From the NCBI GenBank assembly GCA_964414145.1, contig CAYPVH010000007.1, positions 28,640 through 92,639 of the forward strand: 64,000 nt of DNA, given 5' to 3'. The DNA is from an uncultured Gammaproteobacteria bacterium (GTDB taxonomy: Bacteria; Patescibacteriota; Microgenomatia; UBA1406). Each line of letters begins with the position of its first letter. Position 1 is the stretch's first letter. The notes under the pieces are model-generated. The model was not told the origin of the DNA and searched no databases. It worked only from the letters and a program-made list of their open reading frames with translations. This document shows, one piece after another, positions 1-63,610 of the stretch. Both the position numbers and the translations under genes were made by a program.

Positions 1-831
1 TAGCCCCACTCGGTCTTTAAAAACGTCAACAAATGCTTTTGGGTTATGTAGTTTTGGCTGGAAAAAAAAGTTGAGTAGAATTTTTGTTTGTTGAAAGTTG
101 TATTTTAATTCAAATAGAATTCGTGGTGTAAATGCAATCAAAAGCCCACTTAAAAAGAAAACCAGATTCTTTATATTCAAAAAATATTTTCTTGAAACCT
201 TAAAAAGCGTAGCAGTAATAAAAAAGGCAGGAATTAGAAATAAGCCAAAAGACAGTTCAAATTCCGAAACTAAGCCTAAAAAAAGCCCTAAAAGAATTGC
301 TATTAAATATTTCTTATTATCAACAATTTCTTTTTTGGTAACTAGCAAATAGTTTAAAAGCAAAAATGCCATAAGACAGGGTAATACCATAATGTTATTG
401 CCCACAAAAAATGAAGTGAAAATAAAGTAAGGCGACAGAACAATAAGTAATGCCGCAAAAACACTAATCAAGGGGCTAAAGTGTTTTATACAAAAATATA
501 CAAAAACTAAAAGTGAAATAAATTGTATAAAAAAGATAAAATAATAGAACGAAATAGGCAGTCCACTGAAAAGAATAAATGGTATTGAAAGAAAATAGTA
601 CCACCAAGCACCGTGATAAAGCCCCATGATTCCTGTTGTTGGCCCAATAAATGTTGGGTTTTTAAAAAGAATAACTTCTGCTGTTTTTAAAAAGTCTCGG
701 CCCTGGTCATAAGTATAAGGAACGGTTTTGTTAATAATTGGTCCAAGGCGGGTTAAGAAAAACAGCATAATTGCCAGCAACAGAGCAAATAGTATAAAAT
801 TCTTGTTATGCTTAAGTTGTTTAAAAAACAT
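1..831 (-). CDS. GT-C fold membrane glycosyltransferase (GT39/ArnT-PMT-like), 3' end outside window
   Basis: Not in the supplied track. The minus-strand frame has no stop from 837 down to base 1, with ATG at 831. Translation MFFKQLKHNKNFILFALLL...YTYDQGRDFLKTAEV... is polytopic and hydrophobic. It shares the DQGRD first-loop motif with 11958..13433. Confidence 0.7.
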   Translation of the reverse strand, partial: MFFKQLKHNKNFILFALLLAIMLFFLTRLGPIINKTVPYTYDQGRDFLKTAEVILFKNPTFIGPTTGIMGLYHGAWWYYFLSIPFILFSGLPISFYYFIFFIQFISLLVFVYFCIKHFSPLISVFAALLIVLSPYFIFTSFFVGNNIMVLPCLMAFLLLNYLLVTKKEIVDNKKYLIAILLGLFLGLVSEFELSFGLFLIPAFFITATLFKVSRKYFLNIKNLVFFLSGLLIAFTPRILFELKYNFQQTKILLNFFFQPKLHNPKAFVDVFKDRVGL

Positions 832-2259
832 ATTGGTTTAGTTCTATTGCTATTGCCCCTAGCTTTTTTTTATTTGTATAGATTAGATTATAGCACGTTA
901 GTAAGTTGGGATGAAGGTTGGTATGCAAGTATTTCAAGGAGCATGCTAAAGACCGGTGATATCTTTAATTTAATCTGGAATGGTAAACCATTTTACGACC
1001 ACCCACCAATGGGTTTTTGGTTAATGGCATTAAGCTATAAAATCTTTGGTATTGGTGAATTTGGTTCCAGATTACCATCGGTAATTACAGGGCTTTTGGC
1101 GGTAGTTTTTGTTTACAAAACAGCTTTACTTATTTTTAAAAATCGTGTTGTTGCTGTTGTTGCCGGATTAATGCTTGGTACCTCTGCTTGGTTTGTATTA
1201 AGGGTACGTTCCGGTAACTTAGACGCTCCTTTCATTTTCTTTTATATACTTACGGTTTATTCGGCATTAAAAGCTAGAGACAACTACAAATATTTTATTA
1301 TTACTATGTTAAGTTTTACTGCTCTGCTTTTAACAAAAACTTTAGTTGGTGTTTCGGCACTTTTTATTATTTTATTATTGGTTTTTAAAAACATAGTTAA
1401 GTCTAAAAATATAAAAATTACTTTAATTGGAGTATTTCTTTTTTTACTCTTGTTATTGCCTTGGTACTTGATTCAATTTATTAAGTATCCCAACTTTTAC
1501 TCCAGTCACTTTATTCAGGTTGGAATGAGAAGTAAAACTTTAATGTCTTACTTTAAACTCAACTATACTCTGCCCCTTTTCTACCTTCATATGGGAGTAA
1601 GAAAATGGTATTACTTGTGGCTTTTGGGTTTGTTTTCTGTAGTTTTTACGCTTTGGTGGCGAAAATACTTGATTTTTGTGGTTTTACTTTGGAACGCCTT
1701 GGTGCTTTACCCGTTCTTAACAACGGACCAGACTCATATCTGGCACCTAATACCGGTTTACTTACCGATGGCACTAATTATGGCCGGAGGAGTATACCGG
1801 TTGGGCTATTTGGTTTTTAAGAATTTAAAGAAAATTAATCTTTTAAAAATTAAAGCGATTAAATCGGTAATGTCAGTTAGTTTGCTAAATACCGTTTATT
1901 TAATTTGTTTTGTGTTAATTGCGGCAATTCAAGTGAGGGGGCTTTTTGGTGAAGTTATCCCTGGTTCCAGGTATGTTCCCGATGACGTGGCAATTTCAAA
2001 GCAAGCCACCAACTATAATAAACCGCTTTACCTGGATGACGACTTTTTACCAATTGCTGTTTTTTATTCAGGAAAAAATGTTAACCCTCTTATTTATCTT
2101 CCCGATAGCAAGAAAAATTTGGTGGGATTTTACCAAAACACCAAAGATAACAATTTCATGGTTATTACCCGAAACTATGCGCTGGATAATTTGGATAAGC
2201 TGGGAATTCAATACAAGATTATCGATCAAAATAACTCTTTTTCAATTATTACCCGCTAG
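808..2259 (+). CDS. GT39/ArnT-PMT family GT-C membrane glycosyltransferase
   Basis: SWDEGWYASISRSM plus PFYDHPPMGFWLMALSYKIFG motifs; about 10 TM helices followed by a soluble C-terminal domain of about 100 aa. Confidence 0.85.
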   Translation: MLKLFKKHIGLVLLLLPLAFFYLYRLDYSTLVSWDEGWYASISRSMLKTGDIFNLIWNGKPFYDHPPMGFWLMALSYKIFGIGEFGSRLPSVITGLLAVVFVYKTALLIFKNRVVAVVAGLMLGTSAWFVLRVRSGNLDAPFIFFYILTVYSALKARDNYKYFIITMLSFTALLLTKTLVGVSALFIILLLVFKNIVKSKNIKITLIGVFLFLLLLLPWYLIQFIKYPNFYSSHFIQVGMRSKTLMSYFKLNYTLPLFYLHMGVRKWYYLWLLGLFSVVFTLWWRKYLIFVVLLWNALVLYPFLTTDQTHIWHLIPVYLPMALIMAGGVYRLGYLVFKNLKKINLLKIKAIKSVMSVSLLNTVYLICFVLIAAIQVRGLFGEVIPGSRYVPDDVAISKQATNYNKPLYLDDDFLPIAVFYSGKNVNPLIYLPDSKKNLVGFYQNTKDNNFMVITRNYALDNLDKLGIQYKIIDQNNSFSIITR

Positions 2260-3045
2260 GTAATTAAGCACAAGATGAATTTTGGTTCGTAGCGGGGCGT
2301 GTTTTAGCCCAAATAGCAATCTGGAATATCTTTGTTTTTTAATGTGAAGAAGCGATCCCGAACCACCGGTTGAGCCGGCATTTTTGTGCCACATAATAAG
2401 TTTTGGGTCGTAAATTAAATCAATACCTTTCTTGATTGCACGAACAGAGTAGTCGGCGTCCTCATAATAAAGAAAAAAGCGACTATCCCAATAACCTGCC
2501 TTGTTAATAACTTTATTGTTGAAGCAGGCAAGTGTACCGGGAATAAAGTTTGTTTTATTTACTTTATCAAACTGGCCCTTATCAACCATATCTACTCCTG
2601 TGTGTTTTACCAGTGCGTTCTGCCAGTCAATAGTGCCGCCGGCATACCAAATAACATTTCCAAGCTCATTTTTTGCATATCTGTTTTTATGAAACTCATA
2701 ACCCTTTGAGTAGTAAATTTTACCCGTAAAAAAATCATACTTTCTAAAATTTTCTTTTACTTGTTCAATAAAATTATTACTAACGGTAGTGTCGTAATTT
2801 AGTACACAGAAAGTATTAAAAGTATCTTTTTGTGCTTGTTTTAAACAAACATTTACCCCGTAGGAGTAGCCCTTGTTTTTAGCGGGTAGAATAGTAATTG
2901 GAAATATATATTTTTTTGAAATCTTAAGGCAGCTGGTAAGATCGGCAACATAAAGGGTAAAATTAGGATTGTTTTTATTTAATGAGTCTAAAAAATCGTG
3001 CAAATTTTTGGGCTTATTATAATAGACTATTATTAGAGCAAGCAT
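2242..3045 (-). CDS. Family 2 glycosyltransferase (soluble, rhamnosyltransferase-like)
   Basis: N-terminal IIVYYN start, NKGYSYGVN and FFLYYEDADYSVR motifs typical of GT2. TACAAT lies 7 nt upstream of the ATG. Confidence 0.75.
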   Translation of the reverse strand: MLALIIVYYNKPKNLHDFLDSLNKNNPNFTLYVADLTSCLKISKKYIFPITILPAKNKGYSYGVNVCLKQAQKDTFNTFCVLNYDTTVSNNFIEQVKENFRKYDFFTGKIYYSKGYEFHKNRYAKNELGNVIWYAGGTIDWQNALVKHTGVDMVDKGQFDKVNKTNFIPGTLACFNNKVINKAGYWDSRFFLYYEDADYSVRAIKKGIDLIYDPKLIMWHKNAGSTGGSGSLLHIKKQRYSRLLFGLKHAPLRTKIHLVLNYLAGNN

Positions 3046-3099
3046 GTGATTAATTGTATCAAAAGCAGTTAAAAGTTCTATGTTAGAATTAGGCTAAAC

Positions 3100-4032
3100 A
3101 TGAAATATTCAATAGTGATTCCGGTTTTCAATGAAGAGGAAAATATTAATACTATATTTAGTAGAATTCAATCCAGTTTTAATAAAGTAAAAGAACCATA
3201 TGAAGTAATATTTGTTAATGATGGTTCAACCGACAATACTCAAAACATACTCGAATCTATTCATAAAAAGAAAAAGCATTTCAAAGTTATTAATTTTTCG
3301 CGTAATTTTGGGCATCAAACAGCAGTTAGTGCCGGTTTGAAGTATGTAAGGGGTGAATATATTGCAATTCTAGACGGTGATTTACAAGACCCACCAGAAG
3401 TGTTGCCCAAATTTTTTAATAAATTGAAAGAAGGTTTTGATGTGGTTTATGCCATTAGAAGACGAAGAAAAGAACCGTTGATAAAAAGAATAATGTATGC
3501 CGCCTTTTACAGAGTTTTAAAAGCTGTAGCCAACATTAGTATTCCCCTAGACAGTGGAGATTTTTGTGTTATGACGAAAAGAGTAGTCAATACAATTAAT
3601 AGCTTGCCTGAAAGAAATCGGTTTGTTCGTGGCTTAAGAAGTTGGGTTGGTTACCGTCAAGTTGGACTTGAATATGAACGAGAAGAAAGGTTTGCAGGCA
3701 GTAGTAAATATTCTTTTGCTAAGCTGTTCAGACTGGCTTTCGACGGTATTGTTTCTTTTTCTTATGTTCCTTTGCAAGTCGTAACCATAATTGGTTTTCT
3801 AATGTTTCTGCTGTCGATTTTTGGCAGCATAATGACAGTTTATTTTAAATTGTTTACCGATGTTTATATTCCTCGTGGTTTTCCAACAACAATCATTATA
3901 ATCATGTTCATTGGCGGTGTTAATATGCTGTCTCTGGGTATTATTGGTGAGTACATTGGGCGAATATACGACGAAGCCAAACAAAGGGTTCCATTTGTTA
4001 TAGAATCTACACTAGGGTTTAAAGATTCATAA
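3100..4032 (+). CDS. GT2 polyprenyl-phosphate sugar synthase (GtrB/ArnC-like) with two C-terminal TM helices
   Basis: YSIVIPVFNEEENI, FVNDGSTDNT, FSRNFGHQTAVSAGL and DGDLQDPPE motifs; C-terminal TM pair. Confidence 0.85.
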   Translation: MKYSIVIPVFNEEENINTIFSRIQSSFNKVKEPYEVIFVNDGSTDNTQNILESIHKKKKHFKVINFSRNFGHQTAVSAGLKYVRGEYIAILDGDLQDPPEVLPKFFNKLKEGFDVVYAIRRRRKEPLIKRIMYAAFYRVLKAVANISIPLDSGDFCVMTKRVVNTINSLPERNRFVRGLRSWVGYRQVGLEYEREERFAGSSKYSFAKLFRLAFDGIVSFSYVPLQVVTIIGFLMFLLSIFGSIMTVYFKLFTDVYIPRGFPTTIIIIMFIGGVNMLSLGIIGEYIGRIYDEAKQRVPFVIESTLGFKDS

Positions 4033-4040: not shown

Positions 4041-5123
4041 ATGTTATTTATTTACGCTTTAGTCTTGTTTTTGTTTACGGTTTATTCCTATGATTTAGTT
4101 GACCCCAATATGACTCTTTTTTCCAGTAATATTTGGACAACATTCAGAAACGCAATGGTGCAGTTGGGTTATTACCAGCGAGAATTATCATTTGCTATAT
4201 ATATAACGCTAATAATTGCGATGTTTTTACTGAGTGTATATTTTGTGGTTAGTAAAAAACATAGCGCTATAAAACTAGGGCTTATCAGTGTAATTATCTT
4301 ACTTTTTTCATACCCCTTCTTATCTCATGATTTTTTTAACTACTTGTTTGATGCCAAAATTTTAACCTTTTATCATAAAAATCCTTACTTATTTACACCG
4401 CAATACTTTGTTAACGACCCGGATTTGCGATTTATGCACTGGGTTCATAGAACCTACCCCTATGGTCCTTCTTTCTTGTTATTTTCACTCATTCCGTCGT
4501 TTCTTTCATTTGGTAAGTTTGTTTTGTCTTTTTTCTTTTTTAAACTGATGTTTTCTTTTTTTTATCTGACAGCGGTCTATGTAACTAATAAGTTGAATAA
4601 AACAGCAGCTGTATATATTGCAACATCACCGTTAATATTGGTAGAGGGATTAGTTAATTCGCATAATGATTTGATAGGTTTGTCATTATTTATGATGGCA
4701 TATTATGCATTAAAGAAAAGAAAAAAAGCCGCTGCTTTTATAACTGCAATGTTTTCTATTGGTATAAAATATGTCACCTTTGTGTTATTACCTCTTTTTT
4801 CAAAGAACAAGCGTGCTCGGTTTATATCGTTGTTTTTATTTTTTGTCAGTCTGCTGTACATATATTTCAAACTCGGGGTTCACCCTTGGTATTTTTTAAC
4901 CTTATTTGCTTTAGTGGTTTCCTTTGAGAAAATTATTTATCCCTTGTATACCTTATCTTTTTTTCTACTTTTATCGTACTACCCATATATTTATTTTGGC
5001 GGCTGGGATACTGTAGACAAGATACAAGCAAAAGAGTTGATAATAGGTGTTGGAATAGTGGTTTTTTTTGTGCTTTTAATTACAAAACAGAAGTTAAAAA
5101 AATTAGTCGGCCCTTACTTTTAG
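4041..5123 (+). CDS. GT-C-like polytopic membrane glycosyltransferase (DUF2029/GT87-like)
   Basis: SHDFFNYLFDAK acidic loop and HRTYPYGPSFL motif; all-TM protein. Confidence 0.55.
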   Translation: MLFIYALVLFLFTVYSYDLVDPNMTLFSSNIWTTFRNAMVQLGYYQRELSFAIYITLIIAMFLLSVYFVVSKKHSAIKLGLISVIILLFSYPFLSHDFFNYLFDAKILTFYHKNPYLFTPQYFVNDPDLRFMHWVHRTYPYGPSFLLFSLIPSFLSFGKFVLSFFFFKLMFSFFYLTAVYVTNKLNKTAAVYIATSPLILVEGLVNSHNDLIGLSLFMMAYYALKKRKKAAAFITAMFSIGIKYVTFVLLPLFSKNKRARFISLFLFFVSLLYIYFKLGVHPWYFLTLFALVVSFEKIIYPLYTLSFFLLLSYYPYIYFGGWDTVDKIQAKELIIGVGIVVFFVLLITKQKLKKLVGPYF

Positions 5124-6551
5124 AGTATTGATTATCTCAGGTATAAACTTACCCTTCGTTAAAATATAGATCATTGTAGAATAAACGCAAACTCCAACCG
5201 TTGCTGTTACCAAAAGTTCGGTCCATGGTTTGAGTAGTAGTATTTGTTGTATTATATAAATTACCAAACTCATCACTGATGTCGACAATAGTGGGGCACG
5301 AATTGCTTTTAAAAATTGAAAATTAACATAGTCTTTTAATTTTAGAATAACAAGAATAAATGATAAAGAATTAAAGGCAAAAGCAATACTAACTCCGGTA
5401 AAACCAAATTTAAAAATCATTAAGGGGACCACTGTCCAATTAAGTGCAATCCAAAGAAGCATAAATTTAACCGAAGTTCTAACCTTACCAATTGCGTTAA
5501 AAACGTTGATAAAAGGAGAAGTAAAACTTACGAATAAGGTAGAAAGCAGGAAAAAATTAAAAGAAGTAAGGGCTGTTTCCCATTTTATATACTTTGGAAT
5601 GATTACTATCATATATGGCATGGTGAAAAATGCTCCGGCTAATATTGGCATAAGAATTAAACTACTAAAAAAAACGACTTTTTCGATCATCAGAGCAAGT
5701 CTTTCTTTATTGTCCTGAAACTTAGAAAATATAGGAAATAAAACTCTGTTAACGTTATCCATAATAATCTTTAGTGGGGTTTCTGCCCATTTTTTTGCCC
5801 AACCTACGTAGCCCATAGCTCCTAATCCCAGCTGACTGGCAAGGAATAAATTTAATAGATCATCTTTTACAAAAGCGAGAAGTACATTTGATTGAAAAGG
5901 AATACCATAGCTTAAAATCCGTTTAGCATATTTTTTGTTGAAGGTAAATTTTGGAACCCAACGAGTAAAATAATAAATAAGAGAAGTGCCAACAAAAGAG
6001 CGGGCAATTACCGCAAAGGTTAAGGCATATATTTTAAAACCGGCTAAAAGTAAAATTATACTGATTGCATAAAAGGTAGTGCTTTCAACAACTTGAGTTA
6101 AAACAATTTTTGAATAAGCAAGCTGTCTTTCAAGACGGGTTGAGGGAATGGACTTGAAGGAAAGAATAAATAAGGAAAAAATCATTCCCAAGTATAAGCT
6201 AATTCCAGGAGAGGTAAAGCTGTAGAGTTTAATAATTATCGGTGTTAAAAGCAGACCGACAATAACAATAGTGGTAACAAGAGTTAGTTGAATAGTAAAG
6301 GCGGTATGGAATTCTTCTTCTTTTGGGTTTTTGCTTTGCACTAGTGACGCCGCTAACCCAAGATCGGTAAAATAACTAAAGATCATAATTATAGACAAAA
6401 CAATAAAGTAAAGTCCGTATTCTGCCGGAGACAGATAAATAGTAAAAACAAGGTTAGCAATTAAGCCAAGGAAAGCCGAGTAGGCGCTATTGCCTAAAAA
6501 ATACATAATACCAAACAAACCCTTTCGTTTTATTTCGATTTTATCTTCCAT
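5103..6551 (-). CDS. Wzx-like oligo/polysaccharide flippase (MOP superfamily)
   Basis: 482 aa with about 12-14 TM helices and a polysaccharide-biosynthesis-protein-like pattern; sits inside the glycosylation cluster. Confidence 0.8.
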   Translation of the reverse strand: MEDKIEIKRKGLFGIMYFLGNSAYSAFLGLIANLVFTIYLSPAEYGLYFIVLSIIMIFSYFTDLGLAASLVQSKNPKEEEFHTAFTIQLTLVTTIVIVGLLLTPIIIKLYSFTSPGISLYLGMIFSLFILSFKSIPSTRLERQLAYSKIVLTQVVESTTFYAISIILLLAGFKIYALTFAVIARSFVGTSLIYYFTRWVPKFTFNKKYAKRILSYGIPFQSNVLLAFVKDDLLNLFLASQLGLGAMGYVGWAKKWAETPLKIIMDNVNRVLFPIFSKFQDNKERLALMIEKVVFFSSLILMPILAGAFFTMPYMIVIIPKYIKWETALTSFNFFLLSTLFVSFTSPFINVFNAIGKVRTSVKFMLLWIALNWTVVPLMIFKFGFTGVSIAFAFNSLSFILVILKLKDYVNFQFLKAIRAPLLSTSVMSLVIYIIQQILLLKPWTELLVTATVGVCVYSTMIYILTKGKFIPEIINTLKVRAD

Positions 6552-6561
6552 ATTAAATTAC

Positions 6562-6567
6562 TATAAT
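6562..6567 (+). promoter_or_regulatory. -10 hexamer TATAAT, 6 nt upstream of ATG 6574 (leaderless-type)
   Basis: ctATAATaagaaaATG read directly. It overlaps a minus-strand TATAGT (6565..6560) lying 8 nt upstream of wzx ATG 6551. Confidence 0.45.
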
Positions 6568-6573
6568 AAGAAA

Positions 6574-8271
6574 ATGAGGAAAATTATAGTTATTTTTTCC
6601 ACGATTATTCCCATATTTGCTATTGTAGCACTTTTTTCTGATCAATACTTTTCAATGCATGACAGGCAACATATAGTTAGGTTGTTCTTGCTCGACAAGG
6701 GCCTCGGTCAAGGACTTTTATACCCTCGATATGTTGACGGCTTGGGTTTTGGCTTTGGATACCCTTTATTTAATTTTTATCCGCCTCTGATTTATTATAT
6801 TGCCGAAATTTTTAGACTGGTGGGGTTTGGATACGTGGTATCTATCAAGTTAATGTTGATTTTGGGTTTCTATATTTCTTTTACGGGTATGTATTTGCTT
6901 CTAAATAAGTTACTTAAAAAGCCTTATATTGCCTTGCTTGGAGCCACTCTTTTCTTGTTTGCTCCTTACCATGCTGTTTTGGTTTTTGTGAGAGGGGCTT
7001 TTGCCGAGTTTTTTGCCTACAACCTAATTCCCTGGATATTTTGGGCTTTCTTGAAATTAAGCGAAAACAATAAGAGATACTATTTTTCAATATTTATTGC
7101 CCTTTTAATACTGGCGCACCCATTAGTGGCATTCCCTTTTTTATTAATTTTTGGTGTTTTTTTCCTTGTTTATCTTTTGTGTGCGAATAACAAGTTAGAT
7201 CTGATTATTAAAACAGTCTTTGCCTTTTTAGTTGGTTTGGGTTTGTCTGCTTTTTTTTGGTTACCGTCTTTGTTTGAAAGGAAATATACACTGGTTGACA
7301 AAATTCTTACTAATCAATTAGCCAATTATAACCTTCACTTTGTTTACCTTCGGCAATTTTTTAACTCGTCTTGGGGTTTTGGCGGCTCAATATATGGCTT
7401 GTGGGACGGGATGTCTTTTGAAATTGGCAAAATACACTTGGCATTGTCTTTAATTAGTGTTGTTGGTCTTTTTGTTTGTTTACTGAAAGGGGAAAAGTCT
7501 TGTGGTTTAATATTAAAAAAGGCATTGCCATACTTAACGATCTTTGTTGTTGCCGTATTTATGAGTTCGTTTTATTCAAAAATAGTCTGGGACAATGTGC
7601 ATTATTTATGGTATTTGCAATTTCCATGGCGGTTTCTTGTTTTTGCCACATTTGCTTCTTCGCTAAGTGGGGTTTTAATTTTAGTGTTCATAGAAAACAA
7701 TAAAATAAGAGGCGTGTTAGCTGGATTGATAATTGTTTTATCAATAATGTTTTATGCGCCACTTTTTAAACCGGAAAAATTTATTGATGGCGCTGACGAA
7801 AGTTATATAACTAAGGAACAAATTAACTGGGAAGTAAGCAAGACTTCTTATGAATTTATGTACAACGAGGTGAGTACAGTAGTTAACGATGATAATACTA
7901 CAAGTCTTAAGTTACAAAAAAATGAAATTCCAACAATTTCTTATATTAAAAACGAAAACCTTAAGGTAAAACAACTAGAAGATAAATATATTCAAAAAAA
8001 ATATAAAGTTAAGGCGAAAAAGAAAACAAAGTTTGTTATTAACACCAGTTATTTTCCAGGTTGGAATGTGTACGTAAACGGAAATAAACAATTTTTGAGT
8101 AAAACGGGAAAAATAAAACTGCTATCGGTTGAGCTTAAGCCGGGATTATCTGAGGTAGAATTTAGGTTCGAAAACACAACACCAAGAACTGTTGCTAATT
8201 TATTGAGTATTTTTGTGCTGGTTTTATTAATACTTGTTGCCGTGAAGAATTTATTGTTTCACCGAAAATAA
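6574..8271 (+). CDS. GT-C-like large membrane protein (COG5617/YfhO-like)
   Basis: HDRQHIVRL...YPRYVDGLGFGFGYPLFNFYPPLIYY motif block; polytopic, with a C-terminal beta-rich domain and a final TM. Start moved to ATG 6574 (TATAAT 6562-6567); the track start 6490 overlaps wzx. Confidence 0.55.
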   Translation: MRKIIVIFSTIIPIFAIVALFSDQYFSMHDRQHIVRLFLLDKGLGQGLLYPRYVDGLGFGFGYPLFNFYPPLIYYIAEIFRLVGFGYVVSIKLMLILGFYISFTGMYLLLNKLLKKPYIALLGATLFLFAPYHAVLVFVRGAFAEFFAYNLIPWIFWAFLKLSENNKRYYFSIFIALLILAHPLVAFPFLLIFGVFFLVYLLCANNKLDLIIKTVFAFLVGLGLSAFFWLPSLFERKYTLVDKILTNQLANYNLHFVYLRQFFNSSWGFGGSIYGLWDGMSFEIGKIHLALSLISVVGLFVCLLKGEKSCGLILKKALPYLTIFVVAVFMSSFYSKIVWDNVHYLWYLQFPWRFLVFATFASSLSGVLILVFIENNKIRGVLAGLIIVLSIMFYAPLFKPEKFIDGADESYITKEQINWEVSKTSYEFMYNEVSTVVNDDNTTSLKLQKNEIPTISYIKNENLKVKQLEDKYIQKKYKVKAKKKTKFVINTSYFPGWNVYVNGNKQFLSKTGKIKLLSVELKPGLSEVEFRFENTTPRTVANLLSIFVLVLLILVAVKNLLFHRK

Positions 8272-18839: not shown

Positions 18840-18845
18840 GATAAT

Positions 18846-46706: not shown

Positions 46707-46713
46707 AGCTAGA

Positions 46714-46807: not shown

Positions 46808-46813
46808 AAATTT

Positions 46814-47456: not shown

Positions 47457-47472
47457 CATAAACAATTATTTG

Positions 47473-49589: not shown

Positions 49590-49676
49590 TAATCTAGATT
49601 ATATCAACCGTAATTTAAGTTAAGACTAAAAAAGTTTTGTTGACAATGCTTTAATTTTCCTAGTAAACTTAATAAT

Positions 49677-50192: not shown

Positions 50193-50198
50193 TATAAT
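50193..50198 (+). promoter_or_regulatory. -10 hexamer TATAAT, 6 nt upstream of valS ATG 50205
   Basis: TATAAT-tctaaa-ATG read directly. Confidence 0.45.
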
Positions 50199-50204
50199 TC
50201 TAAA

Positions 50205-52412: not shown

Positions 52413-52414
52413 AT

Positions 52415-52564
52415 ATGGGTTACAAAGGCAATAAGACATCTAAAATCAAAAGGTCCAGAACACACGGGTTTAGAGAGAGAATAAAAACAGTAACAGGAAG
52501 GCGGGTTTTAAAAAAAAGAATGCTTAAGGGCAGAAAACGCTTAGTTGTTAAGGTTCAGAAGTGA
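52415..52564 (+). CDS. rpmH: 50S ribosomal protein L34
   Basis: 49-aa ORF missed by the track: [49 protein letters not shown]. It matches the L34 pattern (K-R-x-R-x-HGFR-x-R, GR-x-VL-x-RR-x-KGRKRL). Confidence 0.85.
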
Positions 52565-54931: not shown

Positions 54932-56008
54932 ATGTATACTTTTAATATGACCTTAATTGAGTTTTCAAATCAAGCAAGATTGATGGGAAAGTTAATCGCC
55001 TTCATATTTGGGGTTTTAGTATTTAGTTACTTAATGATTGTTGCATTAGTAACAATTTTAAAGAAACCAGCAACAGATACTATAAGGTATAACACAACAT
55101 ATGGGCAAATCGAAAAGCCAAATTTTAGTTATGTTAAAGACAAAGCTAAATACAATTTTGTTCTGGATACTATTGATGGCAGTTATCCAAATACTACCAT
55201 GTCGGCGCATATCTATTTTATCCCCGAAAAAAAGACGACTTTGGCATATTTAACCAGAGCAGAGTCTGTGGCAAAATATTTTGGTTTTGAAGATATTGAA
55301 TCTGCAAGAGTAAATGAAGGAATATTAAAATTTGAGGATAATAACCAGGTATTGGATTTTGATGTTAAGGACTATCATTTTAATTATCAGCTAAAATATA
55401 CTCCATTACTTGAGGAATTGGTAGAGGCAACTCCAGAGGCTAACTTTACTCTTTTTGAAGACAATTTTATTGATACGGCTAGGGAAGTACTCCAAGACTT
55501 AGATTCTTATCCAACGTTTCTTGCTGCCGGTAAGAGCAATATTGTTTATCTAAAGTACGACTATGCCAAAAAGAGTTTTATTCCAATTGGTTCCGGAGAC
55601 ATACCTCAAGCTGTTAGAGTAGATTTCTTTCGAAAAGATGAGGAATTACCGGTAATACCACCGAACTATTTTGAAAGTCAAAACTATGTAATTCTGGCAC
55701 CTTTAAGTCGCTACCCAGAATTAATTGAAGCCCAATTTAGGGCATTTGATAAATTAGATACCGAACCCGGAGAATATCCATTAATTTCTTCACAAGAAGC
55801 TTGGAAAGCTTTAGAAAAAGGCAAAGCCAGGGTTATATCCATAGATAGCAACGCCAAAAAGACAATTAAAATTAAAGATATTTATCTAGCTTATTATGAT
55901 CCGTTACTTTACCAAAAATATTTTCAACCTGTCTTTGTATTTTTAGGTGACTATAACTTTGTGGCATATCTTGAGGCAGTTAAACCGGAATATTTTATTA
56001 CCGACTAA
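54932..56008 (+). CDS. Membrane-anchored hypothetical protein
   Basis: N-terminal TM helix plus an extracytoplasmic domain of about 310 aa; no recognisable motif. Confidence 0.45.
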   Translation: MYTFNMTLIEFSNQARLMGKLIAFIFGVLVFSYLMIVALVTILKKPATDTIRYNTTYGQIEKPNFSYVKDKAKYNFVLDTIDGSYPNTTMSAHIYFIPEKKTTLAYLTRAESVAKYFGFEDIESARVNEGILKFEDNNQVLDFDVKDYHFNYQLKYTPLLEELVEATPEANFTLFEDNFIDTAREVLQDLDSYPTFLAAGKSNIVYLKYDYAKKSFIPIGSGDIPQAVRVDFFRKDEELPVIPPNYFESQNYVILAPLSRYPELIEAQFRAFDKLDTEPGEYPLISSQEAWKALEKGKARVISIDSNAKKTIKIKDIYLAYYDPLLYQKYFQPVFVFLGDYNFVAYLEAVKPEYFITD

Positions 56009-56919: not shown

Positions 56920-58309
56920 TTACAGTTTTGATTCCGAGTTCTTGTAATTGTTCGCTTTCTGCTTTTGATGGTGCGTTCATAACAGAAGTACTACCACTGC
57001 TACTGGCTGGGAAAGCAATAACCTCACGTAGTGAGGGTTCACCAAGAACTGCAAAGAGAAGCCGGTCAATTCCGGGAGCTATGCCTCCATGAGGAGGAAC
57101 ACCAAAGGCAAAGGCTTCTAGCATATGGTTAAATTGTTGTTTTTGGTTTTTAGTAAAGCCTATCAAATCAAAAACGGTATTTTGTATTTCGGATTTATGA
57201 ATTCTAATACTGCCACCACCAACTTCAAAACCGTTTAAAACCAAGTCGTGCTGAAGACCCCTAACTTTTTCGGGGTGGGTTTTAAGTAATGGTATATCTT
57301 CCTCTTTTGGAGCGGTAAACATATGATGTGAAGGGGCAAAAGTAGCATTGCCTGAGCCGTGAAAATAATCTTCTTTGGATTGTTTGGTAAACAGGGGAAA
57401 GTCTAGTACCCACGTGAATGCTAATTCGTCTTTGTTATTTTTGTCTTTTCGTAAATCTGGCCTGTCTGAACCATACTTTGTTGTAGCTTCTTTGTGAGTA
57501 AGCCTGGGCCAAGGGGTTTGAGATAATTTTTTGTGAGGAAATATTTTTTTAATAAGTTGTGTGAATAGATCTTCGGTAAGATTTAAAATATCTTCCTGGG
57601 TAACAAAAGACATTTCTATATCAAGTTGAGTAAATTCGCCATAAGCGCGGTCTCGTCTTGAGTCTTCGTCTCTAAAACAACGAGCAATTTGGAAATAGCG
57701 CTCAATGCCGGCAACCATGAGTAGCTGTTTATATTGTTGGGGAGATTGAGGTAATGCATAAAAATTTCCAGGCTGGAGTCTGGAAGGAACCAAAAAGTCG
57801 CGCGCACCTTCGGGTGTTGTTTTTGTAAGAATGGGCGTTTCTACTTCAATAAACTTATTTTCTTTTAAGTAATTTCTAATAAATTGTAATGTTTCAAAAC
57901 GAAAAGTTAAATTTTTCAGCATTCTTTCTCTTCTTAAATCCAGATAGCGATACTTTAAACGAAGCTCTTCATCTATTTGTAGTCCATCAGTATCTATGGG
58001 GAAAATCGGAGTTTTTGCAATTGAAATAACTTCAATCTTTTTGGCTTCTGCTTCTATATGACCGTTAATTACTTTTTTGTTAATATTTCTTTCATTCCTA
58101 TTTTTTATCAGTGCAGTTATTGACACAACCGACTCATTAACAATATGATCTAGTTCTCTATTACCAACTATTTGCACAGTGGCAGTGTGATCTCTTAAAT
58201 CAAGAAATGTGATTTTACCATGACTTCTTTTATTACTAACCCAGCCCATAAGTTCAACTTCTTTACCAATATGTGTCGACAGATCACTAAAAAATATTTT
58301 TTTTGTCAT
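56900..58309 (-). CDS. aspS: Aspartyl-tRNA synthetase, bacterial-type core lacking the GAD insertion domain
   Basis: OB-fold N-terminus, QSPQQYKQLLM, FRDEDSRRDR..EFTQLDIEMSF (motif 2) and GGGSIRIH..GIAPGIDRL (motif 3). YGSDRPDLR is followed almost directly by WVLDFPLF. Confidence 0.9.
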   Translation of the reverse strand: MTKKIFFSDLSTHIGKEVELMGWVSNKRSHGKITFLDLRDHTATVQIVGNRELDHIVNESVVSITALIKNRNERNINKKVINGHIEAEAKKIEVISIAKTPIFPIDTDGLQIDEELRLKYRYLDLRRERMLKNLTFRFETLQFIRNYLKENKFIEVETPILTKTTPEGARDFLVPSRLQPGNFYALPQSPQQYKQLLMVAGIERYFQIARCFRDEDSRRDRAYGEFTQLDIEMSFVTQEDILNLTEDLFTQLIKKIFPHKKLSQTPWPRLTHKEATTKYGSDRPDLRKDKNNKDELAFTWVLDFPLFTKQSKEDYFHGSGNATFAPSHHMFTAPKEEDIPLLKTHPEKVRGLQHDLVLNGFEVGGGSIRIHKSEIQNTVFDLIGFTKNQKQQFNHMLEAFAFGVPPHGGIAPGIDRLLFAVLGEPSLREVIAFPASSSGSTSVMNAPSKAESEQLQELGIKTVNEKNNG

Positions 58310-60447
58310 TTGTATTCAAATAAATAATTATTATTATTTTGGTAAATTGGTTTTCCTATTTTATAAAATTTATCTATCTTAAGCGAGCTGTATTTATCTT
58401 TTTCTAGGTTTGTAATAATAATGTATTTTATATTGTACTTATCTAGTATTTTTTTGATTTTTTTCAGTTTAGACATGGGGGACTCGTATACAAAGCGAAC
58501 TTCCTCAGCTCGTTTGTTAACCAAATCTATTGAGCCTCGCCACAACCATTCATGAACCGGCCAGCCAACTACAGTAGCAACACCGGTATGGGCCGAAATA
58601 ATGTTATAGTCTGTATAGGAATTTCCATGTGCCTCTAGAATAGAAAAATTATTGTCTGTTTGTTTTTTTATCTTGATAATTTCAATTATTTCTGAAATTT
58701 GCGGGTAGCTATTTTTAATCCAAGCACTTCCGTCTAGAGATTTGAAGCTTCCATTGAAATAAGATGGTACGGCAATAAAGGGATATAAGAGTACAAAAAA
58801 TAGACTCGGAAAAATAACTAAAATATAGATAATTCTTTTTATACTGATTTTTTTTGTGTTTGCCAGTATAAATGTGATAACCACACCGGAAAGCAGAGAC
58901 ATAATAATAAAAGCTTGATATCCTAACTTGAACATTGTGTTTGCTCTAAAGTGGGCAGGATAAATATCTTTAAAATAGAAAAACTCGGCAAAAAGCGTTA
59001 GTAATATTGATTCTACAAACAGAAAGAAAATAAAGTAAAAGATTTTATCTTTTGTATTTGGAAATTTCCTTTTATTAAAAAAGATAAAAATAAGAAAAGC
59101 AATAAAGTTAAACCAAAATAATCCCCATAAGACAAATAACATCCACAAAGGCGTAGTCTGACATTTACCAGCCTCGAAAATAAATGGACCTAATTTGCCA
59201 ATACTTGTTAAAAAATTTGGAGCACAGTTTACCCCGATGGTACTCGCAAAAGGTTTAAAGTTAACTGAAAACGGTAAAGTTAATAAAAGAGAACTTAAGA
59301 TTATGAATGGATAAGTAATGAATATTTTAATAATTTTTTCGAATTTGATTACCAAAATAAATAAAAATAAAGATCCATATATTAGAAAGTCGGTGGAGTT
59401 TGTCATGTATGTGATAGACAGAAAAAGGGAACACAGAATAAGAATGATCTTATCTATTATTTTATTCTGATTTATTACCAATACTAAAAATAATGCTATT
59501 AACATTAAAACAAAAATTATATCTAGAACGTGTCCATGCAAGTCTGAAACAACATAGGAATATGAAGGGAATTCGTGGATTGTAAAAGGAATAAAGCGAG
59601 TAGCATTAGGATACCAATAGTCCTTGAGGTTGAATGATGAAAGAATTTTCCAGAAGGGGATTGGTTGTTCTGCCGGATAGCCTTTAGTGAAAATGTATAT
59701 GGTATGCAAGTTACCACCCAGATTGACCAGGACAGCTGAAAGTATTCCGGCAACAGTGGGTTTAAACCATTGCAACTTTTCTTTTACCTGCCCAAATTTA
59801 TTTCTTAAATATATATAAATGTTGTAACCCAGCGAAAAACTCATTGTCATGGAAGAGGCAAAAATAGTGGTCAGCATTAAGTTATAACTTATGCTGGGGG
59901 AAATAGAGTTTATTTTAATCATGAAAGCAGTAATAAAGTGGCCAAAATAATAGTAGTTAATTGAAAAAAAGTTGTTTTGAGTAGAGGCAAACCAGTGATC
60001 TTGTGGAGGCAAAAAACGGCTATTAAGTATGCTATTGATAAAACCAAAATCCATAAATTTTTCTAAACTTCTTATTGTTGGATCAATCCCTTTTAAATAA
60101 GTCCAGAAAGCTAATAAAACAAAGAAGCAGATTTCATATACGACGAGCAGTTTAATATTGGGTGATTTTGGCGTAAATTTTTTTTTAATAAAATAATTAA
60201 AAATTAACCATAAAAAAAGTAATGCAAAAATAGATAACTGGGTAAAAGGTAGCACCTTGAAGCTAGAAAGCAGAAACATAACGTAACCGACAACACCAAG
60301 GCTTATGATTCTAAAAAAGGGATAACCCCGATCTTTAAAGCTTGAAAAAATGAGAGAACCAACTGGAAGCGAAGCAATAGACAATACAAGCGTGCCTAAA
60401 TACCAAATCAATACAACAACTCCCCAGTATAGAAAACTGTTATCCAT
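58306..60447 (-). CDS. DUF2298 (Chlor_Arch_YYY) large polytopic membrane protein, GT-C-like
   Basis: INYYYFGHFITAF (YYY motif), HEFPSYSYVVSDLHGHV and WPVHEWLWRGS motifs; about 20 TM helices. Confidence 0.75.
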   Translation of the reverse strand: MDNSFLYWGVVVLIWYLGTLVLSIASLPVGSLIFSSFKDRGYPFFRIISLGVVGYVMFLLSSFKVLPFTQLSIFALLFLWLIFNYFIKKKFTPKSPNIKLLVVYEICFFVLLAFWTYLKGIDPTIRSLEKFMDFGFINSILNSRFLPPQDHWFASTQNNFFSINYYYFGHFITAFMIKINSISPSISYNLMLTTIFASSMTMSFSLGYNIYIYLRNKFGQVKEKLQWFKPTVAGILSAVLVNLGGNLHTIYIFTKGYPAEQPIPFWKILSSFNLKDYWYPNATRFIPFTIHEFPSYSYVVSDLHGHVLDIIFVLMLIALFLVLVINQNKIIDKIILILCSLFLSITYMTNSTDFLIYGSLFLFILVIKFEKIIKIFITYPFIILSSLLLTLPFSVNFKPFASTIGVNCAPNFLTSIGKLGPFIFEAGKCQTTPLWMLFVLWGLFWFNFIAFLIFIFFNKRKFPNTKDKIFYFIFFLFVESILLTLFAEFFYFKDIYPAHFRANTMFKLGYQAFIIMSLLSGVVITFILANTKKISIKRIIYILVIFPSLFFVLLYPFIAVPSYFNGSFKSLDGSAWIKNSYPQISEIIEIIKIKKQTDNNFSILEAHGNSYTDYNIISAHTGVATVVGWPVHEWLWRGSIDLVNKRAEEVRFVYESPMSKLKKIKKILDKYNIKYIIITNLEKDKYSSLKIDKFYKIGKPIYQNNNNYLFEYK

Positions 60448-60508
60448 GTTGTTTATTATATTACTAATAAATGTAGAATAAGTACAAATAGAGAAAGGAT
60501 AATTTTAA

Positions 60509-60514
60509 TATAAT
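60509..60514 (+). promoter_or_regulatory. -10 hexamer TATAAT, 6 nt upstream of ATG 60521
   Basis: TATAAT-taattt-ATG read directly. Confidence 0.45.
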
Positions 60515-60520
60515 TAATTT

Positions 60521-61531
60521 ATGAAAATCTGGATAAAGGGACTTGCCGAAGATGACTTATCAAAAATAAGAGGAATTGGTAGTTATGTGGATATGGCTAA
60601 AGAAGCCATAGAAAGATATGGGGAAAAATATAATTTATTTTTAGACCAAAAAGAGTCCAAAACAATTATTCAACCGGGATTTTCACCTTACCAAAGACTT
60701 AGTTATGAAAATGGGATTCATAACATAGTTGTGATTCATGACCTTATTCCAATAAAATTTCCCAAAGAATTCAAAGCTGGGCTGAAAGGTTATGTAATAA
60801 ATTTGCTAAACCGTTTTCAACTAAAGAAATATAAGGGAGTAATTACCGATTCAGAAACAGTTAAACAGGAACTAATAGAATACTTCAAGTTTCCACCTAA
60901 TAAAGTTGAAGTGGTATACCCGGCAGCAAAACGTGTTTTTGAAACCAAGCAATACTTGAAAGATAATATTACTGGTCACTTGTTACCAAAAAAGTATCTT
61001 CTTTATGTTGGTGATGTAACATGGAATAAGAATTTAATGAAAATAGCCAATGCCGTAATAAGAGCAAAACTAGAATTAGTGCTAGTCGGGAAGGCATTAC
61101 AAAACAGCAGAGTTAACAATAATATCTGGCTTAAATCTTTTAATGAATTTAAATCAATTACTAAAAATAAACCCAATTTTCATTTTCTTGGGTTTATTAC
61201 CGATCTTGAATTGGCAAAAATCTATAAACAAGCTGTAGCTTTGTTATTACCATCTATAGATGAAGGCTTTGGTTTGCCGTGGCTAGAGGCATCTTATTAC
61301 GAAACAGTATCTATTGTTTCAAATATTCCTATTTTTAAAGAAATAACTAAAGGTGGGGCGATTTATGTTAATCCAACAAGTGAAAGTAGTATTGTTCGGG
61401 CTATAGAAAGCGTTTGGCAAGATAATACTCTAAACAATATACGAAAAAAGCAAAAAGCAGCAATTAAATACTACTCACAAGAAGAGTTTTGTAAAAGTTT
61501 AAAACAGGCAATATTAAAATTAATTAATTAA
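60521..61531 (+). CDS. GT4-family (GT-B) glycosyltransferase
   Basis: C-terminal LLLPSIDEGFGLPWLEAS (E-x7-E) motif. Confidence 0.8.
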   Translation: MKIWIKGLAEDDLSKIRGIGSYVDMAKEAIERYGEKYNLFLDQKESKTIIQPGFSPYQRLSYENGIHNIVVIHDLIPIKFPKEFKAGLKGYVINLLNRFQLKKYKGVITDSETVKQELIEYFKFPPNKVEVVYPAAKRVFETKQYLKDNITGHLLPKKYLLYVGDVTWNKNLMKIANAVIRAKLELVLVGKALQNSRVNNNIWLKSFNEFKSITKNKPNFHFLGFITDLELAKIYKQAVALLLPSIDEGFGLPWLEASYYETVSIVSNIPIFKEITKGGAIYVNPTSESSIVRAIESVWQDNTLNNIRKKQKAAIKYYSQEEFCKSLKQAILKLIN

Positions 61532-61573: not shown

Positions 61574-61579
61574 TATAGT
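61574..61579 (+). promoter_or_regulatory. -10 hexamer TATAGT, 6 nt upstream of ATG 61586
   Basis: TATAGT-gtaagt-ATG read directly. Confidence 0.4.
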
Positions 61580-61585
61580 GTAAGT

Positions 61586-63610
61586 ATGATCTCTATTCCT
61601 TTTTTAACAAAAAAAGAAGAAAAAAGTGAGGGTTATGTTTTAATGCTTTTTTTAGCTGGTGATAAAGTTCATGGTTTTGCTTTTGAAGAGGCAGATATGA
61701 ACAATAGAACGGCACTATATACTGCCCATATAGATCCTTTTTTAGATGACGCTATAGATAAAATCGAAAAGATTATTTTTGATTGTGAAAAGGACTTGGG
61801 TAAAGATATCTATTTAGTAAATACGGCACTTTTGTTGAACTCGTTATATATTAACGATGCCGGATCGGTTAGGGATGACTTTATTCAGAAAATAAAGAAA
61901 ATATTTAAAACACTTGACTTAAATAATCTTGGATACATAAATTTCTGCGAGGCAGTAACATTTGGTTTAAATAAGAAAAATTTTACCTTCGTTGAAGAAA
62001 CAATTTACGACTTTATTATTTATGAAATAGTTAATAATACAGTAAAAAACACCAAAAAAATTGCTAAAACGCAAAATGAGAGTGATAGTACCAGTGAGTT
62101 ACATAAAGCACTAGCTGAATATGATGAAATAGTATATTTTATTGGTAGTAATGAATTTAGGAAAAATACAACTTTAAAAGGTGACTTTATTGAAACCGAT
62201 CAACTAAGAGAAATTTTTATCGAAATATACAAAAAAAACAAGTGCGATGATAATCAAGATAATGTAACAATTACTGATGAAAATAATAAAACTATTAAAG
62301 AGAACACTGAGACTAATGAATCAAATAATGATAGTGTTTTTGCTGCGCTGCCAGTTATGCCTGGGTTTAGTGCAGAAGCGAGTCAAGATTTGAAGTCGAC
62401 CTACGCATTTGAAGAAACCAACGTCACGAAAACGAACATTAACTTGGTTGGCAATCTTAAAAAGTTTATTAGCAGAATAAAATTTCCATCTATAGCCTTG
62501 TTTTCAAAAAAACCAGCAAACATACTTCTACTGCTTCCGGTGCTAATATTAATCATTCCAGTTTATTTGTTGTTATTTCATCGATCAGATATTACCATAA
62601 CAACCAAGAAAGAGAATTTCTCTTCCGAAACGAATTTTGTTGTAAGTAAAGACAAAAATTATGTTGGTATTTTTACAGATAGTGTTGATGTTAAAGTTTC
62701 AGCAAATACTACCGGAGAAAAAGAAGTAGGCGAAAAAGCAGAAGGTGAAATAAGTTTATACAATGGCACTTTTAAAGCACAAGAAATAGTGCAAGATACA
62801 CGTCTTACAACAGGTAATGGAGTAACTTTTATAATAACAGAGACTACTACCATACCCGCAGCTACTACTTCGGCTAATCTAGATGAGGGAGTGGTTACCA
62901 AATCATTTGGCAAAAAAAATAGTAAAGTTAAAGCACTGGCAATTGGAGCCGATGGAAATATTGATGATGGTGTTAAGCTGACTATAGCCGAGTTAGATGA
63001 AGATGAGATCTATGCTTTGGCTGTGGCGAATTTTAAGGGAGGCTATAAAAAAACAGTTAGTGTTTTTTCAGACGAAGACAAGGCAGATCTTGAAGAAAAA
63101 GCCGAGGCACAAGCTAAAAAAAAGTTATTGCAACTTTTTGCTGACAAAAATGGCACAGACAGTATATTATTAACAGATACTTTTGAAATTAATGAAGGAA
63201 GTAGAAAATACTCAGTTGATGAGGGTGAAGAAGCAGACAGGGCTGATATTTCTATTCAAGGGAAGGCAACAGCACTTTATATAGAAAAAGCTGAGCTGGA
63301 AAAAAAAGTACAGAATGAAGAACTAAAGGAAAAGCAGTTTGTTGATGGCACTTTTCAATTAACAGATATAAAGTTAGCAAGCAATAAACCTGGCACTTAT
63401 AATTATCGGGCAATTGTAAATGGAAAGGTACAAAACTTTATTGATAAGGATGAGCTCAAACAAAAAATATCTGGTAAATTTAAGGGAACTGCAAGTGATT
63501 TATTAAAAGAAGAAAGAAATATTATTAATTTTGATATTAAAACTAAGCCAATATCTTTACCTATTATTCCCTTTAATTCTAAGTTTATTAATTTTATTTT
63601 TGAGCGATAG
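61586..63610 (+). CDS. Bitopic hypothetical protein (cytoplasmic N-domain, TM helix, extracellular beta-rich domain)
   Basis: TM segment ILLLLPVLILIIPVYLLLF near aa 310. The extracellular block TGEKEVGEKAEGEISLYNGTF..TRLTTGNGVTFII..TIPAA resembles CPR proteins I recall being annotated as baseplate-J-like (from memory, unverified). Confidence 0.5.
   Translation: MISIPFLTKKEEKSEGYVLMLFLAGDKVHGFAFEEADMNNRTALYTAHIDPFLDDAIDKIEKIIFDCEKDLGKDIYLVNTALLLNSLYINDAGSVRDDFIQKIKKIFKTLDLNNLGYINFCEAVTFGLNKKNFTFVEETIYDFIIYEIVNNTVKNTKKIAKTQNESDSTSELHKALAEYDEIVYFIGSNEFRKNTTLKGDFIETDQLREIFIEIYKKNKCDDNQDNVTITDENNKTIKENTETNESNNDSVFAALPVMPGFSAEASQDLKSTYAFEETNVTKTNINLVGNLKKFISRIKFPSIALFSKKPANILLLLPVLILIIPVYLLLFHRSDITITTKKENFSSETNFVVSKDKNYVGIFTDSVDVKVSANTTGEKEVGEKAEGEISLYNGTFKAQEIVQDTRLTTGNGVTFIITETTTIPAATTSANLDEGVVTKSFGKKNSKVKALAIGADGNIDDGVKLTIAELDEDEIYALAVANFKGGYKKTVSVFSDEDKADLEEKAEAQAKKKLLQLFADKNGTDSILLTDTFEINEGSRKYSVDEGEEADRADISIQGKATALYIEKAELEKKVQNEELKEKQFVDGTFQLTDIKLASNKPGTYNYRAIVNGKVQNFIDKDELKQKISGKFKGTASDLLKEERNIINFDIKTKPISLPIIPFNSKFINFIFER

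Follow-up and report, generated by a model that had tools for sequence, protein, structure and literature searches.

In a 64-kb stretch of contig CAYPVH010000007.1 (GCA_964414145.1, positions 28,640 to 92,639 of the forward strand; hereafter the window), most genes that head a transcription unit are preceded, at a fixed short distance, by a TATAAT-like hexamer of the bacterial −10 type, while Shine–Dalgarno (SD)-like sequences are missing from the starts. The hexamer commonly ends six or seven nucleotides before the start codon (N6 or N7 below), and most of these sites are likely to be true leaderless or near-leaderless promoters. This reading had been put forward in an earlier note on the same DNA, and it is supported by the restriction of the hexamer to unit-leading genes, by promoter-like features, by the promoters of tRNA genes and by conservation in relatives; where transcription starts and how ribosomes load are inferred from these features. 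The window is 33 % GC and holds approximately 59 tightly packed genes plus three tRNAs.

TATAAT-N6-ATG has seven matches on the two strands, against a mean of 1.40 (standard deviation 1.15, maximum 5) in 100 dinucleotide-preserving shuffles, none of which reached seven. The claim that exact hexamers exceed what AT-richness would give therefore holds. Each of the seven is the start of an open reading frame (ORF) of at least 100 codons that lacks an in-frame ATG upstream. The six that the earlier note had listed are confirmed; the seventh, at 30849 (−), had been missed. As a bare pattern TATAAT-N7-ATG is not above chance (2 matches, 1.4 expected), and both matches are gene starts: 46706 (−), as previously described, and 60447 (−), which had been overlooked. 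The proposed test for positional enrichment of the looser hexamer TANNNT was run on the window and yielded a clear peak at N6–7. Before the first ATGs of 59 ORFs of at least 100 codons, TANNNT occurs 13 times at N6 and 9 times at N7, compared with approximately 3 at each other offset in the same upstream regions and approximately 1.6 when the remaining ATGs are scaled to the same number. Hexamers that agree with TATAAT at five or more of six positions occur 11 times at N6 and 6 times at N7 before these ATGs, against approximately 1.4. Because the peak is confined to N6/N7 within the same upstream regions, it is positional and not a side effect of AT-rich spacers.

All 15 hexamer sites of the earlier list match in hexamer, spacer and ATG, with 13432 lying on the + strand. 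The list was nevertheless incomplete by at least eight sites, and it understated a pattern that is also SD-free and lineage-wide. The additional sites are 60447 (−; TATAAT, N7), 49589 (−) and 54857 (−) (both TATAAT, N8), 6551 (−; TATAGT, N8), 25717 (−; TAAAAT, N7), 17968 (−; TATCAT, N8) and 54947 (+; TATACT, N6), together with weaker TANNNT sites at 41725, 43132, 49677 (GTG), 52561 (GTG, era) and 13433 (−). The spacing is N8 at four sites and N10 at three (3100, 38851 and 41560). A search for a class of fixed-length leaders near N33 gave no peak, only scattered TATAAT hexamers 25–38 nt upstream of a few starts. Of 29 motif-associated starts, 27 are ATG, 2 GTG and none TTG.

A promoter and a translation signal differ in where they should occur within operons. 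Genes were annotated with Pfam and NCBIfam, and each was classed as leading (divergent neighbour, tRNA before it, or a gap of 45 nt or more) or internal (same strand with a gap below 45 nt or an overlap). TANNNT at N6–8 is found at 25/34 leading genes (74 %), at 4/25 internal genes (16 %) and at 9.7 % of all ATGs in the window. The difference between leading and internal genes is significant (Fisher P=1.6e-5), as is that between leading genes and background (binomial P=1e-18); the internal share is indistinguishable from background (P=0.22). An automated ORF caller with automatic classing returned 26/33 leading against 4/24 internal genes. With longest-ORF starts alone, 18/34 leading genes still carry the motif (P=3e-10), and thus the choice of starts is not circular.

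The sites resemble promoters in further respects. A TGn extension of the −10 is present in 10/29 sites, compared with a TG dinucleotide frequency of 5.4 %, and a weak −35 ‘TTG’ is discernible, with G at the expected position in 12/29. A pyrimidine occupies −1 in 22/29 sites (46 % background, P=0.001) and, with the A and T of the ATG, forms a Y−1R+1Y+2 start element; N6 spacing places the A of the ATG at the 7th base after the −10. The preferred context of bacterial transcription start sites (TSS) is Y−1R+1Y+2, located 7–8 bp after the −10 (PMC12641261). TGnTAnAAT likewise precedes all three tRNA genes (TGtTATAAT-N10, TGaTACAAT-N9 and TGtTAAAAT-N29). Housekeeping promoters are essentially extended −10 elements (TGnTAnAAT) with little −35 information. 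A two-hexamer sigma-70 scan over 60 kb was uninformative in DNA this AT-rich: it returned 69, 84 and 51 sites where shuffles averaged approximately 69–73. Terminator-like hairpins were marginally above shuffles in two of three 20-kb segments and were not used for unit boundaries. The candidate sites and the tRNA promoters are as follows.

795–810 (+): TAAAAT-N7-ATG, start of a PMT_2-family glycosyltransferase gene (808–2259)
3043–3058 (−): TGaTACAAT-N7-ATG, GT2 glycosyltransferase (2242–3045); Pfam profile position 2 falls at residue 4
3084–3102 (+): TAGAAT-N10-ATG, GT2 gene (3100–4032); N10 class, 3–4 nt leader predicted
6549–6565 (−): TATAGT-N8-ATG, polysaccharide flippase-like gene (5103–6551); −10 overlaps the opposite-strand −10 of 6574
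6562–6576 (+): TATAAT-N6-ATG, membrane protein (6574–8271); would supplant the TTG 6490 long form
13419–13434 (+): TGcTAAAAT-N7-ATG, membrane protein (13432–14568); would supplant ATG 13357
13431–13446 (−): TAACCT-N7-ATG, weak, PMT_2 paralogue (11958–13433); alternatively leadered from a TATAAT at N25
17966–17982 (−): TATCAT-N8-ATG, UDP-glucose dehydrogenase (16673–17968); candidate internal promoter
24763–24777 (−): TACAAT-N6-ATG, M23 peptidase (23557–24765); start exposes a signal peptide
25715–25730 (−): TAAAAT-N7-ATG, ftsX (24821–25717); candidate internal promoter, 10 nt past ftsE
30847–30861 (−): TATAAT-N6-ATG, GT2 gene (29908–30849) at the head of a long minus-strand cluster
31792–31806 (−): TGtTATACT-N6-ATG, SurA_N-like protein (31063–31794)
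33520–33534 (−): TATAAT-N6-ATG, 567-aa protein without known family (31819–33522)
34753–34768 (+): TGaTAAAAT-N7-ATG, 407-aa membrane-anchored protein (34766–35989)
36906–36920 (+): TATAAT-N6-ATG, methyltransferase (36918–37736)
38835–38853 (+): TATAAT-N10-ATG, APH-family kinase (38851–39774); short-leader class
41558–41576 (−): TGcTAAAGT-N10-ATG, MFS transporter (40358–41560); short-leader class
41712–41727 (+): TAGACT-N7-ATG, weak, 453-aa protein (41725–43086)
43120–43134 (+): TAGCAT-N6-ATG, holin-family protein (43132–43464)
44153–44167 (+): TGtTATTAT-N6-ATG, ATP-cone/Mrr_cat protein (44165–44995)
46704–46719 (−): TATAAT-N7-ATG, ABC ATPase (45774–46706)
46802–46816 (+): TATAAT-N6-ATG, HIT-family protein (46814–47206)
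49587–49603 (−): TGaTATAAT-N8-ATG, TsaC/Sua5-TsaE fusion (48510–49589), head of the tsaD operon
49664–49679 (+): TTGACA-N18-TAAACT-N7-GTG, 152-aa ORF (49677–50135); candidate GTG leaderless start
50193–50207 (+): TGcTATAAT-N6-ATG, valS (50205–52412)
52549–52563 (+): TAAGGT-N6-GTG, era (52561–53448); no other start candidate is listed within its first 45 codons
54855–54871 (−): TATAAT-N8-ATG, gltX (53445–54857)
54935–54949 (+): TGtTATACT-N6-ATG, membrane protein (54947–56008); alternative ATG at 54932
60445–60460 (−): TATAAT-N7-ATG, DUF2298 membrane protein (58306–60447), head of the aspS operon
60509–60523 (+): TATAAT-N6-ATG, GT1 glycosyltransferase (60521–61531)
61574–61588 (+): TGcTATAGT-N6-ATG, 674-aa protein (61586–63610)
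31005–31013 (−): TGtTATAAT promoter, 10 nt upstream of tRNA-Met (30925–30994); non-coding control
34475–34483 (+): TGaTACAAT promoter, 9 nt upstream of tRNA-Pro (34493–34569)
47347–47355 (+): TGtTAAAAT promoter, 29 nt upstream of tRNA-Met (47385–47457)

Two divergent pairs have closely placed starts. The starts at 6551 (−) and 6574 (+) lie 22 nt apart, and their TATAGT and TATAAT hexamers overlap on opposite strands in ACTATAAT (6560–6567). The segment 6549–6576 thus has the appearance of a bidirectional promoter in compact form, with symmetric −10 elements, and is the sole clear case in the window. At 13431–13434 the start codons of the divergent genes 11958–13433 (−) and 13432–14568 (+) overlap in the palindrome CATG, and the putative −10 elements TAAAAT (13419–13424, +) and TAACCT (13441–13446, −) each fall within the opening codons of the opposite gene. 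Support for the 13433 start comes from the domain register of a paralogue, PMT_2 beginning at residue 75 as in the paralogue at 9759.

The starts lack SD-like sequences upstream, to the point of depletion. The 4-mers GGAG, GAGG and AGGA do not occur at distances of 0–11 nt upstream of the 59 first ATGs. Duplex energies, computed against the canonical anti-SD tail, average −0.21 kcal/mol over positions −20 to −1 of the 59 starts, compared with −1.39 for random 20-mers from the window, and pairing at −4.4 kcal/mol or below is reached by 1/59 starts against 11 % of random 20-mers. The statement in the earlier note that the spacers hold no SD is therefore borne out, and it extends to the −20 to −1 region of essentially all genes. 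Internal genes have neither a −10 box nor an SD; their upstream sequence is A/T-rich and G-poor. Nineteen of the 25 internal genes start between −8 and +10 nt from the preceding stop codon, with ATGA and TAATG overlaps common, which is what coupling by termination and reinitiation requires. ATG is possible as start for almost every gene, GTG being needed only by 49677 and era.

The gene for release factor 2, prfB (26907–27920, −), is a single uninterrupted ORF covering TIGR00020 positions 4–352 of 353, and no programmed +1 frameshift site was found within it. The prfB frameshift depends on an internal SD, and many other bacteria are also without it; its absence here fits an SD-independent ribosome. 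A 16S 3′ end from which to read the anti-SD was sought in the window and in all fetched loci, and none was present. The anti-SD is reported as retained in most 16S rRNAs of the candidate phyla radiation (CPR), a lower rate of detection being noted for a Parcubacteria subgroup only (PMC9297842). The lack of SD in the window may therefore coexist with a retained anti-SD. In CPR ribosomes bS1 is short, and bS21 is missing from some groups, Collierbacteria among them (PMC9297842); uL30/bL9 are missing as well.

The host is an uncultured, ultrasmall CPR/Patescibacteria bacterium of the Microgenomates group that uses genetic code 11; it was assigned to this group with one marker, valS. In a search of 185,579 species genomes, the top informatively labelled valS matches were Woesebacteria, Gottesmanbacteria, Collierbacteria, Microgenomates group and Patescibacteria group (43–47 % identity), and the best single match was an unclassified ‘bacterium’ metagenome-assembled genome at 53 %. 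Among the remaining top loci, several bear labels such as Pseudomonadales that were taken to be wrong. Saccharibacteria reached 38–39 % and other phyla at most 38 %. A metagenome scan with valS gave a best identity of 54 %, and with no better than 53–54 % the host has no close relative in the genome or metagenome collections. Three proteins of the window, looked up as exact sequences, had no recorded match. Gene content is bacterial (ftsEX, prfB, era and tsaD); on this ground and on that of motif position, the idea of a TATA-box-bearing DPANN/archaeal host was rejected.

Two sets of Microgenomates-type loci, approximately 645 kb together, were compared with non-CPR controls. In 15 genome loci (273 kb), TANNNT occurs 46 times at N6 against 3.9 expected, with SD motifs no more than 2–4 times background; in 26 metagenome loci (372 kb) it occurs 40 times at N6 (5.8 expected) and 26 times at N7 (7.4 expected), with SD near background. 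The controls lack the −10 peak and have a strong SD peak (e.g. 96/621 at a distance of 8 nt). Likewise, duplex energies in the controls average −5.04 kcal/mol against −2.34 for random sequence, with 52 % of starts past the −4.4 threshold, whereas the relatives show the same depletion trend as the window (−1.71 against −2.29). At the homologous valS start TAnnnT lies 6–9 nt upstream in 12/18 loci, including loci of 43–50 % GC. Downstream protein families are bimodal for the motif (11/11, 16/18 and 14/19 against 0/23, 0/22 and 0/16), as expected if operon position is conserved. In at least one relative, from Gottesmanbacteria (L008, 38 % GC), none of 21 genes has a −10 at N6–8 and SD-like motifs are slightly more frequent, so that the trait is variable within the Microgenomates group.

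Spacing is also conserved in particular families. Two orthologous families (approximately 203 aa with an MADF start and approximately 265 aa with an MDxF start) keep TATAAT-N10-ATG in L006, L010, L012, L013 and L014 (e.g. L006:2117 and L006:2935, both minus strand), corresponding to a predicted fixed leader of 3–4 nt. The N10 peak in relatives was rejected as an independent class, as it is largely made up of these two families. In several relatives tsaD heads its own unit, with TATAAT at N7–N8.

Motif position also bears on start codons, which differ from the longest ORF in 12/59 genes, 8 of them among the 34 leading genes. The earlier note had favoured internal ATGs at 6574, 13432, 24765, 31794, 34766 and 46706, which is plausible on the evidence of N-termini, overlaps and the codons of the long forms; these starts probably are to be reassigned. 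The 24765 start reveals a classical Sec-type signal peptide (MKKFFFVLIAFFLATSFLFYSSPAIG), and those at 6574, 13432 and 34766 reveal N-terminal transmembrane or anchor segments. Overlap with the divergent neighbour would amount to 62 nt for long form 6490 and to 77 nt for long form 13357; long form 24846 overlaps ftsX by 26 nt, and 5/6 long forms start with TTG. Elsewhere the motif ATG is fixed by domain alignment: gltX (Pfam/NCBIfam residues 1–318 against profile 1–314), UDP-glucose dehydrogenase (residues 1–184 against profile 1–186) and the holin (Pfam 1–105 of 105).

As to mechanism, in approximately three quarters of units the −10 ends 6–8 nt, most often 6, ahead of the start-codon A. Given that transcription usually starts at the 7th–8th base on a pyrimidine-flanked purine, RNA polymerase would start on the AUG or within 1–2 nt of it. 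The resulting 5′-AUG mRNA could be bound directly by a 70S ribosome or by initiation factor 2 (IF2)-fMet-tRNA, with no pairing between SD and anti-SD. Leaderless decoding of a 5′-terminal AUG is established for Escherichia coli cI, mycobacteria and Deinococcus. Downstream cistrons would most likely be served by termination–reinitiation or coupling, and a minority of units would have leaders of 3–4 nt (N10) or SD-less leaders of approximately 20–30 nt.

Several observations weigh against this reading. Nine of the 34 leading genes have no motif at N6–8, and the hexamers TAACCT, TAAGGT, TAGACT and TAGCAT are weak enough to arise by chance in DNA of 33 % GC. The N8 and N10 sites imply leaders of 1–4 nt, not strictly zero. 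Additionally, the sample of 64 kb is a small part of a genome, and the relatives’ loci are all valS neighbourhoods, so that their counts are neither phylogenetically nor genomically independent. The spacing classes lend some weight to the idea that the −10 elements are genuine but transcription starts 1–5 nt upstream or at variable positions, or that promoters further upstream give dominant leadered transcripts. The four N8 and three N10 sites (two N10 families being conserved in relatives) and the TATAAT hexamers 25–38 nt upstream of a few starts are in its favour, as is a more variable distance from −10 to TSS in one CPR species with TSS data (PMC12641261). The modal N6, however, sets the A of the ATG at the canonical 7th position in a YRY context, and leaders of up to 5–8 nt are functionally leaderless because they leave no room for a ribosome-binding site (PMC10568206), which makes this account improbable.

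The hexamer might instead be a translational signal in leadered mRNAs, either an AU-rich non-SD element or an S1-binding element, as in group B of GeneMarkS-2. The absence of SD and the A/T-rich upstream regions of all genes would suit such a signal, and AT-rich non-SD ribosome-binding motifs are known in other phyla (PMC6028130). It should, however, be equally present at internal genes, which is contradicted by the 4/25 against 25/34 distribution; nor would it be expected to carry TGn and a weak −35, to precede untranslated tRNA genes or to peak sharply at the start distance of RNA polymerase, and it is judged highly unlikely. A purely compositional origin, in which AT-rich intergenic sequence is combined with biased start choice, can draw on the 33 % GC, on the sigma-70 scan being no richer than shuffles and on the starts that depart from the longest ORF. 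It is effectively refuted by the dinucleotide shuffles, by the positional nature of the peak and by the persistence of the signal with longest-ORF starts only, as well as by recurrence of the motif at orthologous starts in relatives of 42–50 % GC and its absence from the non-CPR controls. Leaderless or near-leaderless transcription thus continues to be the preferred explanation for most N6/N7 sites.

The mechanism itself is a known one. ‘TA-led’ genes, which have a TA-like signal approximately 10 bp ahead of the start, have been on record since a 2011 catalogue, in which they accounted for more than 20 % of Actinobacteria and Deinococcus-Thermus genes (PMC3160421). In GeneMarkS-2 group C genomes a Pribnow box lies 6–8 nt from first-gene starts and 25–50 % of operons are leaderless; in Deinococcus deserti 167 of 262 mapped genes (64 %) are leaderless (PMC6028130). 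Code-11 genomes of group C are almost all high-GC (MetaGeneMark-2 preprint). The window resembles group C in having TANNNT 6–8 nt from first-gene ATG or GTG codons and no SD on those genes. It differs in its low GC, in the absence and depletion of SD where leadered and internal genes of group C use SD, and in a predicted leaderless share (74 % of units, approximately 49 % of genes) at or above the top of what has been reported.

Mycoplasma pneumoniae is the nearest functional counterpart, although unrelated: it too has a small AT-rich genome and very low SD usage. A −10-dominated promoter structure, in which the −35 is weak, has been reported for it (Weiner et al. 2000). It differs in using code 4 and lacking ribosomal protein S1, whereas the window is code 11 and CPR, with a predicted leaderless share several-fold higher. 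In M. pneumoniae 8.1 % of genes have an SD, approximately 16 % of transcripts are leaderless-like in normal growth, and translation is largely independent of the anti-SD (PMC10568206). GeneMarkS-2 group B (Bacteroidetes and the wider Fibrobacteres–Chlorobi–Bacteroidetes group) shares little or no SD and A-rich sequence immediately before internal starts, but there the AT-rich motif stands before all genes and is not a promoter, whereas here it is unit-leading only and has promoter features. In archaeal group D, as here, most units are predicted leaderless and internal genes are tightly coupled. The archaeal TATA box, however, lies approximately 26 nt upstream, in contrast to an element at −12 to −7 of sigma-70 type with TGn; no archaeal-type peak was found at 20–30 nt upstream of the starts, only scattered single matches. 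The overlapping opposite-strand −10 elements at 6549–6576 are comparable to bidirectional promoters with overlapping, symmetric −10 elements, as reportedly described by Warman et al. (2021), except that here a leaderless or almost leaderless form is predicted for both transcripts. Among the papers searched in full text, none described the use of leaderless starts or of SD in CPR, Patescibacteria, Saccharibacteria or Microgenomates. The mechanism is thus apparently undescribed for a Microgenomates-group lineage, and it occurs here with no SD component and with unusual dominance.

A large cell-envelope glycosylation region (808–30849) includes four PMT_2/PMT-family paralogues (808, 8251, 9765 and 11958), six GT2 glycosyltransferases, a flippase-like gene, rmlA/B/D-like genes (17997–20616) and UDP-glucose dehydrogenase; ftsE-ftsX followed by an M23 peptidase also lie within it. 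At 47473–49589 (−) a TsaC/Sua5-TsaE fusion of 359 aa, both domains of which are above NCBIfam cut-offs, is followed by tsaD via a TAATG overlap. The 276-aa product of 44165–44995 (+) combines an N-terminal ATP-cone, a Mrr_cat/NERD-type nuclease and an AF1548-like C-terminal domain, and judging from these domains would represent an unusual nucleotide-sensing nuclease architecture. ValS (50205–52412) is 735 aa long, the match to its anticodon-binding domain stops at residue 725, and relatives are similar in length; no C-terminal coiled-coil domain was detected in it. Between valS and era lies a purine-rich spacer of 148 nt (52413–52560) with no Rfam match and no ORF, the longest unexplained intergenic stretch near the promoters studied. 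An Rfam scan of the window returned the three tRNAs only, with no leader RNAs or riboswitches.

A CPR lineage in which most operons are predicted to be leaderless and SD is absent is unexpected in a low-GC, code-11 genome. Gene callers driven by SD or by the longest ORF will misplace starts in such genomes, as is illustrated by the 12 genes here that have a longer, probably wrong, alternative start. Misplaced starts distort N-termini, signal-peptide calls and family alignments across a very large uncultured radiation. The rule TGnTAnAAT-N6-ATG offers a simple predictor of promoters and starts for expression constructs and for the reading of metatranscriptomes. The pattern also provides a testable link between the reduced ribosomes of CPR and their mechanism of initiation, and a data point for the debate between an ancestral origin of leaderless initiation and its recurrent emergence in reduced genomes. 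More tentatively, CPR of the Microgenomates group could have abandoned SD-dependent 30S initiation, with 5′-terminal AUGs on first cistrons, reinitiation downstream and essentially 70S-type loading throughout, a reading judged less likely than not. If true, this would mean that start-codon errors in CPR annotations are systematic, that SD-like sequences are actively avoided despite the reported retention of the anti-SD (PMC9297842), and that the simplified CPR ribosome is tied to a distinct, possibly ancestral-like, regime of initiation.

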